64,000 bases of DNA from Amphiscolops sp. MND2022 (lineage: Eukaryota), in contig OZ076409.1 in assembly GCA_964187785.1 (NCBI GenBank), forward strand, positions 2,916,001-2,980,000. The letters are read 5' to 3'. Position 1 is the stretch's first letter. Every line of letters starts with the position of its first letter. Under the pieces are notes generated by a model. The model did not search any database and was not told the origin of the DNA. It saw only the letters and a list, made by a program, of their open reading frames with translations. Of this stretch, positions 1 to 17,530 are shown piece by piece. The translations under genes were made by a program, and so were the position numbers.

Positions 1-2
1 GT

Positions 3-3000
3 GAAGAAACTCAGAAACTAACTAGTTTCATCGTAGGTGGAAAACAATACACCTATCAAGTTGGATTCTATGGCCTTTGTGGACTCCCTCAATGGCTCAG
101 CCGAATGATGGCGATTAACTTCGAACCACTTGTAAAGAAGAAACAAGCAATCACCTATCTTGACGATAGTCTTCTCCAATCACAAAACAAAGGCGAGATG
201 TTCACAATCATACACGAATATCACCAACTTCTACGAAAAGGTGGACTAAAAGCCGCACCTGACAAGACACACTTCTTCTTGAGAAAAGTAAAGTTCCTGG
301 GACACGTTATATCTCAGGACGGAATTCAACCAGTAGCTAAACGAGTACAAGACTTGAAGAATTTGAAGTCACCGGAATGCAAACGAGGCGTAATGAAAGT
401 CCTCGGATGTTTAGGCTTTTATAGCTGTTATATCAAGAATCTACACGTCGATAGTCAACCGTTCTATGAATTGATAAAAGACACTACACCTTTCAAATGG
501 ACTGAACAACACGAAACACTTTTCAACCAGATAAAAGAAAGAATCTCAGAAGATACTATTTTAGCAGTTCCTTCAACTGAATACCCTTTTCATATTCACG
601 TTGACTCTTCGAATGTAGGGACTGGATGTATCTTAGTTCAACAATTTCCAGAAGGAAAACGAATAGTCTCTTTCAACTCTCGTGTCTTTGATAAAGCAGA
701 ACAAAAAATGTCTACCCTCCACCGAGAACTTTGTGGTATTGTATCTGCACTACAAACCTATGAGCACTACATTATTGGCTCACCATTTCCAATCGACCTA
801 TACTGTGACCACAAACCCATTCTCTACTTATGGGGACGAAAAGGACAACTTTCTCATCGGTTCTTCAAGTACCAAGTTATAATAACAAAATTTCACAACT
901 TGAAGATAATCTGGACGCCAGGTTCAAACTTAGCTTTCCCAGATATACTTAGCCGAAACGTAACACTGTCCGACATCAACAAATTCCAGCTACAGCATAA
1001 AGAAATACCGAAAGAGATATCATTCTATGATGAAAAGGGAGACCAGATGCATTACACTATCAAACACGAAGATAGCCAAGATATCTCATGCAACGACTTC
1101 TTTCCGATAATCTGCCAACATGGAAACGATAGACAAATCCTACACCTAAAGAATGATGGTGACGAACAATATGTCGAAGACTACATAGAAGACAATGAAG
1201 TCTTAGCTACAATACAAGACATGACCGATTGCTTTAAACTCGGCAAGACAATAAACCAATATAAACGACTTTGCTCAGATGTTTGCCCCTACTTCACAAA
1301 TTACACTATCGAAGAGGAAACCTACAGCGAAATTGAAGAACAACAAGATGACGGCTACAACAGCGACAACGAAATAGCAGAACTAAACTTCGATCAGAAG
1401 GACTCCGAATTCTTACACGATTTCTCACTTGCAAACGAATCAATCCGAAGAAACCAGTCACGAAAACCAATTCTAAAATCCAACATAGACTCAGAATTAC
1501 ACCCAGAGGTAGACACAAAGGAATTGATACAAAAATTGAGTGATTTTGCAAAAACTGCTGATTTAGATGTAACTACATTAGTTGAAGAACAACTCAATGA
1601 TCCAGTACTACAAAAAGTACGCAGTTGGATAAAGAAATCAGATAAACGACCAACAAAAACACATGATATCAATCAATCTAAAGCACTACTGTCATACTTC
1701 AACCGATTTGAGCAACTCTTTATAGACGAAGAAACCAACCTCCTATGCTACAACGAGACAGTTCAGGAAACAAGCAAAACTGAGATGAAAATATGTGTTC
1801 CTCTATCATTGTTTCTACCACTTTTCAAACTTGCTCACACACACAGCCACAGTGGTCATCCTGGAATATTTAAGACCTTTGAAAATATTAGACAATATTT
1901 CTTTTGGCCAGGACGATACAAATGGATAGTTTATCTCATAGAAGACTGTATCGAATGTCAAACCAATAAGTCAAAACGTCATGACTTACACGAAGCTCCC
2001 TTGGAACAATGTGGAGAACTTGAAACTACACCTTTCAAAACCATTCATATAGACCATAAAGGCCCGCTCAGGCCTAGTAGCAATTCTAACAACCATTGCT
2101 TAGTAGTAGTTGACGCATTTTCAAGATTCATTGGTGTCTACCCAGTAAAAGATACTAGCGCACAAGCTACTATTACTGCATTAGAAAAATGGATCACATC
2201 CTATGGAATCCCTCAGAAGATAATACACGATAACGGGACAGCATTTATCAACAGTGACTTCATCAACTGGACTAAAGAATTCGGAATAACTCTTGCACCA
2301 CGTACAACTTACTCACCATGGACAAACGGAAAAGTAGAAGTACAAAATCAGCACCTTACACGATATTGGAGAAACTTCACTAACGAATCAGGTAACAATT
2401 GGTCAAAACTAGCACCGAAATTTGCATTCGCTCATAACACAAGTGTAAACTACACTACGGGACTTACCCCATATGAAATAGTGTTCGGGACAAAACCACA
2501 AGTTCCTATGACGTTAAAACTTGGACTAATACGAGACAAGAACAAACAATGCAGATCCGAATACTGTGAAGGATTAAAACCTCATACACACAGCGAAAAT
2601 CAACTACCGAACAAATCCCTGGACCGATTACTCAGACCACAACTTTCAGACGAACTCATTGCTCGCGAAAATGACTTCAAACGAATTTACTCGTCAACCT
2701 ATCAACGATGCCGCCAAATCACTTCCAAGGCACACGAATACAGAAACCGATTCGGACGACCTATCAACATCGGACAAAAAGTATTCTTAGAGAATCACAC
2801 TGCCGACTTAAGCAGATCACAAAAGTTAAAACAATTACGCGTTGGCCCTTTTACAGTAACTAAACAAATAACAAATACGACCTACGAAATTCAAGAGGAC
2901 GCTAATCCAGATAATATAAAAGTTACTCATCGTAATCACCTGATTGAATACTTCCCTAAAGAGGAAAGACTCCCTCCTTTAATCACTAACTATGCACCGC

Positions 3001-14200: not shown

Positions 14201-15051
14201 GATAGCGATTCGCTGCCTTTCCCAGTCCGTGACAATCGGTGGACTATAAACGCCGTGCAAGCCATTAGCTGCACTTTAGAAGAGAGGTTCGCCCTCTGAC
14301 TTAATAAAATAAAACATAGTAAAAACTTTACGGCTTATCCTCTGATAACTTATTTCAATAACCTTCCCTAGTGACTTAACTTATTTCATTTAAAGATTGA
14401 TATTAAACTAGATTTAGTTATATTTTGTTTATTTAGCCTAATTTGTTTGTTTTGCTTTTGTATAACTGATGTCTATTACAACTTTAGTATAAATAGAGAA
14501 AGATTCAATTCACCTATTTCTGAATCCAAACATTCTTTTCTCCCGGGTCGTAACAATAAAGTCCTTCCAATCGAACTCGCGCCTGAGACGACTTTTGTTG
14601 AAGTGTAAGGAAGGCACAGTCGCGGAAATTTTAAGTACCAGCATATTTTACTTTTTCGAGCAGAAAAATAGAAGAGAAACAAGCTAAGAGTTCACGAATT
14701 AGACGATAATTGAGGCTTATAACTACCGAAATTCAAAGAGAAAAACTGAAGGAAGAAAATCACTAATTTTGAATATTCTTAGAGAAGTTTTCACTAATTG
14801 GAAAAAAGATATAGATTCATCAATCTTCCTACCAACTTAACAAGCAACGGTACAAATTAACAAGCACTTCACAGTATCATAACAGAAAACAGTAATTTTT
14901 TCAATGAGAAAAAGAAACAAAAGTTTGACACTGGTCAGAGTCGAACCCCCATCCACTTCCTGGCAATACCTGAAGAATCCCGGAAACCGGGCCTGATAAA
15001 AATCGCATATCATGACAGCAAATAGTAACAGCGCTTTTTCCGTTGAAATGG
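11130..15051 (+). repeat. Near-perfect tandem duplication, 2 x 1961 bp (11130-13090, 13091-15051)
   Basis: Identical ORF translations offset by 1961. Only two mismatches were noticed by eye (11894/13855 and 12901/14862). ACG microhomology at the junctions. Confidence 0.95.
11519..11893 (+). repeat. 88-bp tandem repeat (four copies plus a partial), each with two TGCTT...AAGCA hairpins; second set at 13480-13854
   Basis: ATTCTATC recurs at 11521, 11609, 11697 and 11785. Confidence 0.92.
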
Positions 15052-17530
15052 ACGTTTTATCAGGAGAGGTCAATTCGCAGAGATACCAATTACTCGACAC
15101 TGGTTAGCTGCGAGCTTTCGCCCTCCGGTGGCTAAAAGTTAGTTTCGTAGCATATTGATTTTTAGAGATGATTGAACTTTTTCAAAAAATGTCGAATAAC
15201 AGTTTTTTTCTTTTCTGTCAAACCCCATTAGCAAGTGTTTTTTTGAAACTACCATAAAAAGGGATTGTTCAAAACTCAAAAAGCGTCTTTTCAAAATTTC
15301 TTTTTAGGGTGGGATTTCAAGATCCAGAAAACATTCAGTGCAAACCAGATAGAAGTTTGACTAAGTTTTACTCGAAAGAAACTGATTTGAAAAAGTACAG
15401 AAAAAACTTTGGATTCGTCTGAAAGTGACTTGAATTCTCTTTCGATCACGCATTACCTGAAACATACCAAGTTAAAAAAAATCAGCCCCTTGGACATGCT
15501 AGATATTTTTGAGGGAATCAATAAAAAAGTGCTTTTTTATGATTGTTATGAATCGACTGTTGGCACCCGTCCACTGATTTAAAAAAGTCGAGCTCGATTA
15601 TGATGGTGCAAATTAAGAACGCAAAACACTTAGAAGCCATTATAAAACTTTGACGAAGTCCAATAGTTACAAATCGTCAAACCCCCGCGCCCAACTGGTC
15701 TTTTCGAAGACTGTTAGTCATAAAGAAATTAAACTTAAACCCGTATGCAGGTACCCAACAAGATCACCTCGACCAAATGTCAAGGTCGTCCTTCAATTAT
15801 AACCCCCTTTACCCCTCAAATGTGTACTTTTCAAGATCATTTACATGCAAAAAATTTAATTACCACTTATTAGGCTGCTGCAAGTGCCACTTCTTTGAAT
15901 GAGTGATATGTACATTTTCTAACCGTTCGGGACCACCTAACAATTTTTCAAAACCCACCCTACGGTTCAGTCAAATAGCCAATAACATTCATATTACTCT
16001 CAAATCTTATTTATTTTTACTTCATGTTTTGACTAAAATTTATTGAATAGCTATAAACAACATGTATGACAAAACTAGTTTAACACAAATTGCTTGGAAA
16101 GCTGTATTCAAGTAGGGCATTTGGACCACATCAATTCTCAATTCATTTCTTCACCTCTTTCCAATTTTTCGCCAAAATTAAGGGCGACAAAATTAGTGTG
16201 TCTCAACGTGTGGAAAATTGGACGTGTAAAAAGAATAAGCAGCCGTTACGTTTGGTCCGCAGGCACGGACGTCATCAATCGGGCGGACATCATCAACTTG
16301 GCGGACAACTGGATGATCATATCTAAATGCTAGACAGTTAGAAAACAATGTTCGAACTAGTGAAAATTTACAGTGAAAGACGCAGCAAAGTGGTGTCATC
16401 TGGGCTCACTTGGGTGTATGATTACTCTGGGGCATGAGCTATATTTGTAGTCTCAGGCAGATTGTATTCGAAGAGGGACAACTGGAGCTCTTGAGTGTAT
16501 AGTGTACTATTGGGCTTTGGACTACTCCATCAGTTTGTTGGGAACTGTATGCGCAAAGGAATTTTTAAACTCGTTTGGTTAGTTAGTGAACTCTGGGGTT
16601 TTGTGCTACTTCAAAATGGCTGAACCTTGGAGAATTGGTCCCAAAAGAATTCACAACCATCTTAGAATATCTATCGACAAGTCACAATGGGAGAGCAACA
16701 AGAGAGCAATTCAAATTTTTGAGGCAAAACTGGATGCAATAGATGCATATCTGCGCAAAGAAAACGTGACAATGAGAACCTTGCAGACCCTCTGCCGAAT
16801 CGACTAGACCTACTGACCAGATGGGCGAAACTCCTCGCGGCGAACAAAGCGCTCTTGAAAGATAAGTATGAGCCAAATTTGACGGATAATAATGGCGGTC
16901 ATTATGCACTTATGAATCTCTCCTCAGCAGGAAAAATGATATTTGCGGTCGTAAAAACGAAAGACTTGAAGTTCTACATTTCGCTTCTGATCTGTTTTCA
17001 GTACGTCGAAGTTTGTTTTTGCATTGTAAGTTGCCTAATATCTCTTGTTACTTGATTTTCCGCTCTCACAATGTCACACAGATGGATGAAACTCATCATC
17101 TGTGCTAAGTTGTTTTCTCCCAACGTTTGCGAAAAATCCAATTACTTATATACCCGTTTCAATTAGGTTCGAACCAGTACGGAAGCCTGAAATTGTTTTC
17201 TACCTTCGCATTTCCTTTTTTGCAATACTAGTGTAGCTGAAATTGTCCCTGTGGTTAGCAGGCGTCTTTTTAACAATCACAAGGATTTGGAGTTTCCGAG
17301 AGTAATGTCAACTGTTTTATCATTTGTAGTGGCAAAAAGGCGGAGAAAAAGTAATGAAAAAACAATGAGATTTTTTCCGAGGAAAAATTTTCCGAAAATT
17401 GGTCTTCAAAAAGTTACTTTTTTATATACCGATTTCGGGAAAAGCGGCTTTCGAGTCTTATTGGTTTCCGTTCGGGTATTTTTGGCACCGTACCTTTGAC
17501 GATTAGGGTCTTTTTGTAGATTCAAAACAC

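Follow-up and report, generated by a model that had tools for sequence, protein, structure and literature searches.

Retroelements of the Gypsy type are usually treated as simple gag-pol(-env) parasites, bounded by long terminal repeats (LTRs). In the complex retroviruses (lenti-, delta-, spuma- and epsilonretroviruses), accessory open reading frames (ORFs) are found around env between pol and the 3' LTR, along with a structured RNA element. Giant Gypsy-like elements, called Burro or GYPSM1, are present in planarians, and were reportedly also described by Jurka (2007) and Grohme (2018). According to the part of the published description used here, they carry MATH_TRAF_C, BIR and BCL2-like domains, an env part resembling mononegavirus glycoproteins, and a dUTPase between protease (PR) and reverse transcriptase (RT); gag, the extra domains, env and pol lie in one ORF of 4,873-5,140 amino acids (aa), and in the Burro element of Dugesia tigrina MATH_TRAF_C is found in a separate accessory ORF (Arkhipova & Yushenova 2019, PMC6431247). 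In the excerpt taken from a second report, glycoproteins of the Jingchuvirales (chuviruses), captured by arthropod LTR elements of the BEL-Pao or Gypsy type, are presented as a putative new retrovirus (PMC10084718). A third source, likewise used in part, describes the CERV protein of the C. elegans Cer1 element as a factor, encoded by a Ty3/Gypsy element, for the nuclear export of unspliced genomic RNA (PMC10309623). The locus compared here with these systems lies at the beginning of a 64,000-nucleotide (nt) stretch of DNA from Amphiscolops sp. MND2022 (contig OZ076409.1, positions 2,916,001 to 2,980,000 of the forward strand), analyzed over its full length and referred to as the window. The window opens inside a Ty3/Gypsy-type LTR element, whose gag, slippery site and pol start all lie upstream, and the region under study is the 3' two-thirds of a single, 18.6-kb Ty3/Gypsy-type endogenous retrovirus-like element. 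With a probability of about 80%, it is read here as belonging to a young Gypsy-type retrovirus-like family, endowed with selected accessory genes which would serve its own life cycle.

The 10 kb directly upstream of the window, on the same contig (L009), supply gag, the 5' LTR and the start of pol. By self-comparison, the 5' LTR (L009 4306-6338) and the 3' LTR (window 10880-12912) are 99.7% identical over 2,033 nt; the distance between them is 16,574 nt, they have TG...CA ends, and a GTAT target-site duplication is found on both flanks. Matched LTRs and GTAT duplication thus delimit an element of 18,607 bp, starting 5,694 nt before the window. An earlier reading of the window, from here on the original prediction, had also taken the region as one element rather than a set of unrelated neighbours, a view that would have fallen had no 5' LTR matched or had other copies lacked the downstream ORFs; the matching LTR was found, and the ORFs are present in 10 out of 10 other copies. 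The same prediction had placed the LTR at 10880-15099: the start is exact, while the end lies at 12912, and there is no LTR of 4.2 kb. The interval between the pol stop and the LTR, given as about 7.4 kb, measures 7,406 nt. The sequence TGGTGCGACCAGTGAGGC, resembling a tRNA primer site, begins 3 bases past the 5' LTR; no tRNA genes were found in the 64-kb window. From 5' to 3', the layout of the element is LTR, primer-binding site, gag, the heptamer U_UUA_AAC, pol, a variable cassette, orf71, p1, p2, orfB, a repeat array, env, orfC, a TRAF-like ORF and LTR. Its features within the window are:

1..3473, + strand: 3' part of pol, 1,156 codons, with the RT end, RNase H, a 300-aa linker, integrase (IN; H2C2 zinc, core and C-terminal SH3-like parts) and a 190-aa tail
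3474..5135, no strand: post-pol non-coding stretch, in which a cassette of 574 nt is swappable (3521-4094) and a repeat of 125 nt varies in copy number (4670-4899)
5136..5351, + strand: orf71, accessory ORF of 71 aa
5352..5477, + strand: p1 remnant, in which an out-of-frame deletion near 5460 joins the p1 start to the p2 tail
5735..6133, + strand: orfB, accessory ORF of 132 aa
6216..6955, + strand: repeat array, 5 tandem units of 104-158 nt each
7225..9360, + strand: env, with a stop at codon 10 (7252-7254) and the frame open for 695 aa from Met17 (7273)
9386..9847, + strand: orfC, 153 aa, disordered at the N-terminus, with a basic helix and, at the C-terminus, a small conserved beta domain
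9850..10821, + strand: TRAF-like ORF, 323 aa, coiled coil followed by TRAF-C/MATH
10880..12912, + strand: 3' LTR, 2,033 nt, TG...CA, 99.7% identical to the 5' LTR
12913..15054, + strand: flank (12913-13090, 178 nt) and tandem duplicate, outside the canonical element

The genome itself was queried with the LTR, and 54 matches were obtained, the best 40 of 579 candidates being scored; among the matches listed, 18 LTR pairs, on 11 contigs, are 14.8-17.1 kb apart. Ten other full copies, each fetched in two pieces, were compared with the window copy, for a total of 11. In all ten, window 5460-12912 is collinear, producing one alignment of 7.46-7.50 kb at 93-98% identity, and the post-pol order orf71, p1, p2, orfB, array, env, orfC, TRAF is the same, which answers favourably the check on gene order put forward with the original prediction. 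LTRs belonging to the same copy are 98.6-99.95% identical, and a locus-specific 4-bp target duplication borders 10 of the 11 copies, the LTR alignment of the eleventh ending short. The array was full-length at 40 out of 40 scored places, of 258 candidates, at 92-100% identity. The family is multi-copy and young. A supposedly separate family, featuring a 384-aa MATH protein, was discarded, as the inspected locus (L036) is a subfamily of the same element.

Synonymous divergence varies more than tenfold along the element, from a pS of 0.017 in gag to 0.21 in orf71, and the copy nearest to the window one changes according to the gene: copy C4 is 99.1% identical in orf71 and 90.8% in the TRAF-like ORF, copy C9 90.3% and 98.7%, respectively, and copy C5 99.8% in orfC and 93.5% in the TRAF-like ORF. 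The copies are thus recombinant mosaics of older lineages; mosaic copies are expected for elements co-packaging RNA.

Selection was evaluated by the Nei-Gojobori ratio of nonsynonymous to synonymous substitution rates (dN/dS, or omega), calculated as a sum across every pair of intact copies; each ORF was represented by 7-11 copies. Values are 0.098 for orf71, 0.23 for p1, 0.25 for p2, 0.083 for orfB, 0.056 for env, 0.028 for orfC, 0.147 for the TRAF-like ORF and 0.245 for gag. Within the TRAF-like ORF, omega is 0.07 in the MATH part, with a range of 0.01-0.09, and 0.13-0.35 in the N-terminal coiled coil. Every post-pol ORF outside the cassette is under purifying selection: for accessory ORFs, env and TRAF-like ORF, the per-ORF test suggested along with the original prediction returned ratios of 0.03-0.25.

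The gag gene (L009 6710-7975) encodes 421 aa, with one CCHC knuckle, C-x2-C-x4-H-x4-C, and a Retrotrans_gag match slightly under the Pfam cut-off (23.9 bits vs 24.1, E 5e-5). The heptamer is located 3 nt ahead of the stop codon of gag, and the pol frame is at -1 relative to gag; a -1 frameshift would, by this arrangement, be the mode of gag-pol expression. The pol frame runs from L009 7921 to window 3473, for 1,850 codons, and the RT part, RNase H and integrase originally recognized from the window start to 3473 were found again by Pfam. The order of Pfam matches is Asp_protease, RVT_1, RT_RNaseH_2, Integrase_H2C2, rve and Integrase_p58_C; the full order is PR, a TARG1-like macrodomain, RT, RNase H, the 300-aa linker and IN. 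The linker between RNase H and IN contains no known Pfam domain, and has no sequence match in PDB. In the window part of pol, dN/dS is 0.04-0.14 per segment (9-11 copies), and pol segments overall range between 0.04 and 0.20; 1-nt indels relative to the window are present in the pol of 8 out of 10 other copies.

The macrodomain, located between protease and RT (L009 8818-9300, corresponding to window -1182 to -700), is the most novel single feature of the family. It aligns with structures of human OARD1/TARG1/C6orf130 (E 2.8e-25, 92.7 bits) over 141 residues, from query 161-301 to residues 19-157 of a 160-residue chain, and has a marginal match to Pfam Macro (22.4 bits, with a cut-off of 22). 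The columns "TK" and "GCGLD" are identical in the element and in the human chain; they include what we take to be the catalytic Lys and Asp of human TARG1, K84 and D125. In all 10 other copies the macrodomain is free of gaps and stops, with a dN/dS of 0.13. Four more distant pols, with an overall identity of 55-64%, were also compared, and all 4 have it at the same site, the macrodomain itself being 37-47% identical. Identity to the macrodomain found in the replicase of a virga-like virus is 31%. A full-text literature search found no description of a macrodomain in the pol of LTR retroelements.

The predicted env was recovered at 7225/7273-9360. It matches PF24664 (Monjiviricetes_fusion) with E-values of 2e-37 and 6e-39 (128.9 and 134 bits, with a cut-off of 27), the match spanning only profile positions 314-610 of 653. 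Env is 711 aa long in 5 of the 11 copies, starts at an internal Met in 2 and is split by frameshifts in the other 4. By inspection of its sequence, the 711-aa protein is hydrophobic at the N-terminus, and again over a stretch close to the C-terminus. Homologues were found in number of 225, at 37-95% identity. No PDB sequence matches env, and a scan of IMG/VR viral contigs with the env alignment produced 17 pattern matches, none of which was confirmed.

The orphan ORF noticed downstream of env in the original prediction corresponds to orfC (9386-9847), which is open, at 152-153 aa, in 11 out of 11 copies. Its relatives form 77 representative clusters at E<=1e-3, sharing a C-terminal domain of about 70 aa. 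An AlphaFold2 (AF2) model of orfC has a predicted local distance difference test score (pLDDT) of 68 overall, and over 90 at the C-terminus. Small chromo/Tudor/SH3-like barrels gave the best fold comparison, with a Z of 4.1, within noise, and no match was found in the viral library at E<=0.001.

Starting 2-7 nt past orfC, the TRAF-like ORF is present where predicted (9850-10821), and matches PF21355 (MATH_TRAF_C) at E 3e-22. It is open in 11 out of 11 copies, at 323-367 aa; the strict counts of open copies, 2/11 for orfC and 3/11 for the TRAF-like ORF, are an artefact of shifted stops in the alignment, the figures of 11/11 resulting from an ORF-by-ORF check. PDB entries for the TRAF domains of TRAF4, 5, 1, 2, 3 and 6, coiled coil included, are matched at E-values from 1e-14 to 1e-8, and the TRAF3 entry 8zuk aligns over residues 18-320. 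Neither a RING nor TRAF zinc fingers were detected by Pfam in the TRAF-like ORF, whereas PF02176 is present in its named cellular relatives. Among named cellular proteins, insect TRAF4 comes nearest, with 32-34% identity limited to the MATH half. If the gene derives from a host, as originally proposed, the origin is plausible only as a distant one. The 1.07-Gb assembly as a whole has a single zf-TRAF (PF02176) match, at C10:42092333-42092500, and no MATH exon was found in the 7 kb around it. When the genome was queried with one TRAF4, 91 of 515 candidate MATH matches were scored, and those inspected belong to repeats.

A second multi-copy, single-exon TRAF-like family was also noticed. Its 346-aa ORF (L032 1501-2541, - strand), with similar matches on C1, C2, C8 and C1817, is 29% identical to that of the element, including the N-terminal 'KFPL..K..QY.H..QL'. 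This ORF was rejected as a marker of a sister retroelement, the 8 kb upstream of it containing neither env, orfC and pol nor a Pfam domain.

The smaller ORFs 5' of the array, reported in the original prediction, were located at 5136-5351 (orf71) and 5735-6133 (orfB). The length of orf71 is 71 aa in 10 of the 11 copies, and its stop directly precedes the in-frame ATG of p1, a junction found in 10 out of the 10 copies where it was located. Intact p1, of 106-117 aa, is present in 9/11 copies, and p2 (106-109 aa) is intact in 8/11, one more copy carrying an in-frame p1/p2 hybrid; the two are 60% identical, and are paralogues. Nine of the 11 copies encode an orfB of 132 aa, which is extended in one of the others and truncated in the last. 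By hhalign, p1/p2 and orfB match with a probability of 87.6% and E 3.5e-6 over 97 columns, so that orfB is probably a distant third paralogue of p1/p2. For orf71, p1, p2, orfB and orfC, no Pfam family was matched, and hence none of the retroviral accessory families. No usable ESM Atlas match was obtained for orfB and orfC. The AF2 model of p2 (pLDDT 70) had no Foldseek match in PDB at E<=0.001, and its best VIA-align Z, 4.7, is within noise. From the close stop-ATG junctions at orf71/p1, p1/p2 and orfC/TRAF, the messages may be polycistronic, with reinitiation, or alternatively spliced. Candidate acceptor-like polypyrimidine-AG motifs are visible in the sequence.

The stretch between pol and orf71 is of a different kind. 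The cassette is present in the window version in 3 of the 10 other copies, the remainder having unrelated sequence at that place, and at least three unrelated versions are found among the 11 copies. The spliced antisense gene of the original prediction falls within this cassette, and did not hold: its ORF (69 aa, 3855-4064, - strand) is found in 3/10 other copies only, with no Pfam match, and of 8 aligned copies 3 have it open, its dN/dS being 0.63 in a poorly aligned region. No minus-strand ORF with a coding signature was found across 3474-12912. A further candidate gene, orfA (3898-4392), was rejected, as frameshifts interrupt it in most copies.

The repeat array, also part of the original prediction, is a conserved structured element, the hairpins of which are supported by covariation. 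Each unit is made of hairpin L (ACACGG...CCGTGT), a nearly invariant single-stranded TATAAATAACTCC and hairpin S; hairpin M is present in 4 of the 5 units, being deleted in unit 2. In the 25 distinct unit sequences obtained from 11 copies, 98.1% of 685 cells are paired, a figure to be read considering that the structure was partly derived from the same sequences used to score it. Compensatory double changes were observed in 7 of 28 pairs, as in ACACGG/CCGTGT of units 1-3 vs AGACGG/CCGTCT of units 4-5; with no more than five unit types, the number of independent covariation events is small. As controls, helices slid from their position pair at 25-46%, and the covariation score was reached in none of 500 shuffles; the result was repeated with an alignment including the diverged subfamily. 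On the opposite strand, some 40 G-U cells would turn into A-C mismatches, and the frequency of G-U pairs favours a plus-strand RNA. Searched with a covariance model built on the array, each element yields exactly 5 units, all on the + strand, and the rest of the 64-kb window has no match. Rfam families were absent at gathering threshold from L009 and L021, and at E<=0.1 from window 1-15200. The array lies about 270 nt upstream of the env ATG, and 24 of its 25 distinct unit sequences keep TATAAATA, which is the same as the TATAAATA of the LTR.

Within the 3' LTR, TATAAATA is at 12527 and AATAAA at 12594. The U3 part contains 4.3 repeats of an 88-nt unit (11520-11894), probably of enhancer type, the copy number of which varies among family members, as judged from split LTR matches; a duplicate is found at 13481-13854. 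This belongs to a 1,961-nt duplication, in which 13091-15054 repeats in tandem, at 99.9% identity, the sequence 11130-13093, made up of LTR positions 251-2033 and the 178-nt flank. The tandem duplicate was seen at this locus only, among the loci listed in the LTR search of the genome; it could be either a real local duplication or an assembly artefact.

Other elements are recognizable in the remainder of the window. A single frame of 3,192 aa (54253-63831, + strand) includes a CCHC knuckle (around aa 814), protease, RT, RNase H and integrase, with about 800 aa ahead of the knuckle and about 900 aa past the integrase having no Pfam match; it looks like a giant one-ORF Gypsy element in Burro style. 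Repeats at 27140-29157 and 52161-54274, 78-93% identical, may be its LTR or leader. A small Gypsy-type element (42426-48333, - strand) has 208-nt direct repeats, 5,700 nt apart and 100% identical, and gag-PR, RNase H and IN in three consecutive frames. Further direct repeats, 100% identical, are found for 25375-26374 and 33884-34327, at distances of 7,953 and 8,509 nt, and may represent an LTR pair or a segmental duplication; the 460-aa ORF between them (31309-32691) has no Pfam match.

Taken as a young retrovirus-like family, these elements would have replicated recently as a virus-like agent, with extra genes serving their own life cycle. Env, a fusion glycoprotein of mononegavirus/chuvirus type, would mediate cell-to-cell or germline entry. 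The TRAF-like protein still has the coiled coil for trimerisation and the MATH domain for receptor binding, and lacks the E3 ligase part; a role as decoy or dominant-negative adaptor is proposed for this reason, possibly blunting immune or apoptotic signalling that depends on TRAF. Macrodomains of plus-strand RNA viruses remove the ADP-ribose marks laid by host PARPs; that of the element, either freed from Pol or within it, might likewise remove the marks of PARP-type defences. The array could be a cis-element of the plus-strand RNA, serving the export, packaging or translational control of RNA that is unspliced or partly spliced, and orfC, with its basic helix and small beta domain, may read it.

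Several observations weigh against this interpretation. The element is known here from DNA sequence alone, a search of sequencing runs for window 3400-10900 having listed none of RNA, and the window copy is damaged by the early env stop and the out-of-frame p1/p2 deletion. The roles of orf71, p1/p2, orfB and orfC are guesses, since no recognizable family or fold was found for them. The pairs on which dN/dS was calculated are non-independent, and no tree was used, the margins being large. The MATH domain evolves conservatively, unlike the arms-race pattern sometimes seen in antagonists, and known cellular TRAFs are only 32-36% identical to it. Finally, a promoter acting at the DNA level would account for the near-invariant TATAAATA of each array unit as well as an RNA element would.

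Seen from the window, where gag and the 5' LTR are missing and 3521-4094 is a truly swappable cassette, the ORFs past pol might be regarded as unrelated neighbours, or nested insertions, caught between a pol fragment and an LTR. This explanation is refuted by the matched 5' LTR with its GTAT duplication, and by the same order recurring between LTR pairs at 10 out of 10 other sites, with 4-bp duplications of their own; its residual probability is negligible. Nor are the extra ORFs at all likely to be decaying passengers, devoid of function for the element. No known domain occurs in orf71, p1/p2, orfB and orfC, and p1/p2 are variable in copy number and both broken in the window copy, as passengers might be; yet the low dN/dS ratios are based, for each ORF, on 96-1,195 nonsynonymous against 320-1,950 synonymous differences between pairs, all copies keep orfC and the TRAF-like ORF open at a nucleotide divergence of 5-14%, and the 77 diverged relatives of orfC conserve its C-terminal domain.

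Individual parts of the proposed mechanism face stronger competitors. Foamy viruses have an internal promoter, and the array may be a DNA-level promoter or enhancer of this kind, its five TATA boxes and palindromic factor sites driving subgenomic env/orfC/TRAF transcripts. The sharing of TATAAATA by nearly all unit sequences and the LTR, and the position shortly upstream of env, agree with this possibility, and palindromes bound by dimers would also co-vary; on the other hand, pairing is kept between arms of different spacing (loops of 9 and of 24-33 nt), nested inner stems co-vary too, and it is only on the plus strand that the many G-U pairs can be accommodated. A promoter block is thus possible, though not the favoured choice, and the two readings of the array are not mutually exclusive. 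MATH domains are general peptide-binding adaptors, and the TRAF-like protein could be a structural or trafficking adaptor of the element itself, for instance recruiting ubiquitin ligases or targeting particles, instead of an immune antagonist. The low omega of MATH fits a fixed partner. The best matches are, however, to TRAF-type TRAF-C with a preceding coiled coil, and not to SPOP or meprin types, and Burro, in the portion of the source used, joins MATH_TRAF_C with BIR and BCL2-like apoptosis regulators, pointing to interference with host pathways (PMC6431247); an adaptor serving only the element is therefore considered somewhat improbable.

A broader interpretation, advanced only tentatively and regarded as doubtful, would make this family a Gypsy-derived lineage of invertebrate retroviruses, convergent with the complex retroviruses of vertebrates. 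OrfC and the array would constitute a pair similar to Rev and the Rev response element, governing the export or packaging of unspliced RNA, the TRAF-like protein a RING-less decoy silencing innate signalling, and the Pol macrodomain, which would be the first reported in a reverse-transcribing element, would erase antiviral ADP-ribosylation. If the modules act as proposed, retrovirus-style complexity and host-defence antagonism arose outside Retroviridae, and PARP/ADP-ribosylation and TRAF signalling would be relevant defences against retroelements in invertebrates. To the usual gag-pol(-env) scheme, the family adds separate, selected post-pol genes, a structured array and two modules seemingly borrowed from cellular or viral immune biology. 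Its many young copies, with diverged alleles for each gene, are a data set for tests of selection and recombination, and both macrodomain and TRAF-like protein are of small size and amenable to separate expression and assay.

Like the complex retroviruses, the element has accessory ORFs flanking env, a structured element and candidate immune-modulating genes, known in this case from sequence only; unlike them, it has a Gypsy-type pol, and none of its accessory ORFs matches, by Pfam, families of the tat/rev/tax/rex/bel type. The label "complex retrovirus-like", used in the original prediction, is fair for genome layout and selection, while infectivity, mode of expression and accessory functions are inferred; the relation is at most one of convergence, and not of membership. 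The macrodomain is similar to those of plus-strand RNA viruses and of human TARG1, but is found here within the Pol of a reverse-transcribing element. The Cer1 CERV protein offers a precedent, from the part of its description considered, for the role guessed for orfC and the array, to which it may be likened by function alone.

Insect errantiviruses, such as gypsy and ZAM, are likewise Ty3/Gypsy elements with env as a third ORF after pol, and behave as endogenous retroviruses. Their env is of the baculovirus F type, and that of the present family of the PF24664 type; we know of no further conserved accessory ORFs, macrodomain or TRAF-like gene in errantiviruses. Captures of chuvirus glycoproteins by arthropod LTR retrotransposons are reportedly the subject of another published study as well (PMC7642597). 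As far as the excerpts at hand go, reports of these captures concern env alone, while here env is one of seven post-pol ORFs in a young family of many copies.

The closest published kin are the planarian Burro elements, with which the comparison is one of descriptions, limited to the portion of the source available. In view of these elements, the premise of the original prediction, that enveloped Gypsy elements normally carry only gag-pol-env, is overstated (PMC6431247). In Burro, env is in frame between gag and pol, whereas here gag, pol and env have an ORF each, of 421, 1,850 and 711 aa, respectively, with env and six small ORFs 3' of pol. Between PR and RT, where Burro has a dUTPase, this family has the TARG1-like macrodomain, and the BIR, BCL2-like, ankyrin and dUTPase domains of Burro have no Pfam match in it. 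The structured array and orfC, which do not appear in the passages on Burro used here, set the family apart by description, not by sequence. Common to both, as far as these passages tell, are an unusually large Gypsy-type element of PR-RT-RNase H-IN order, a MATH_TRAF_C domain, an env part of mononegavirus type and an extra enzyme domain between PR and RT.

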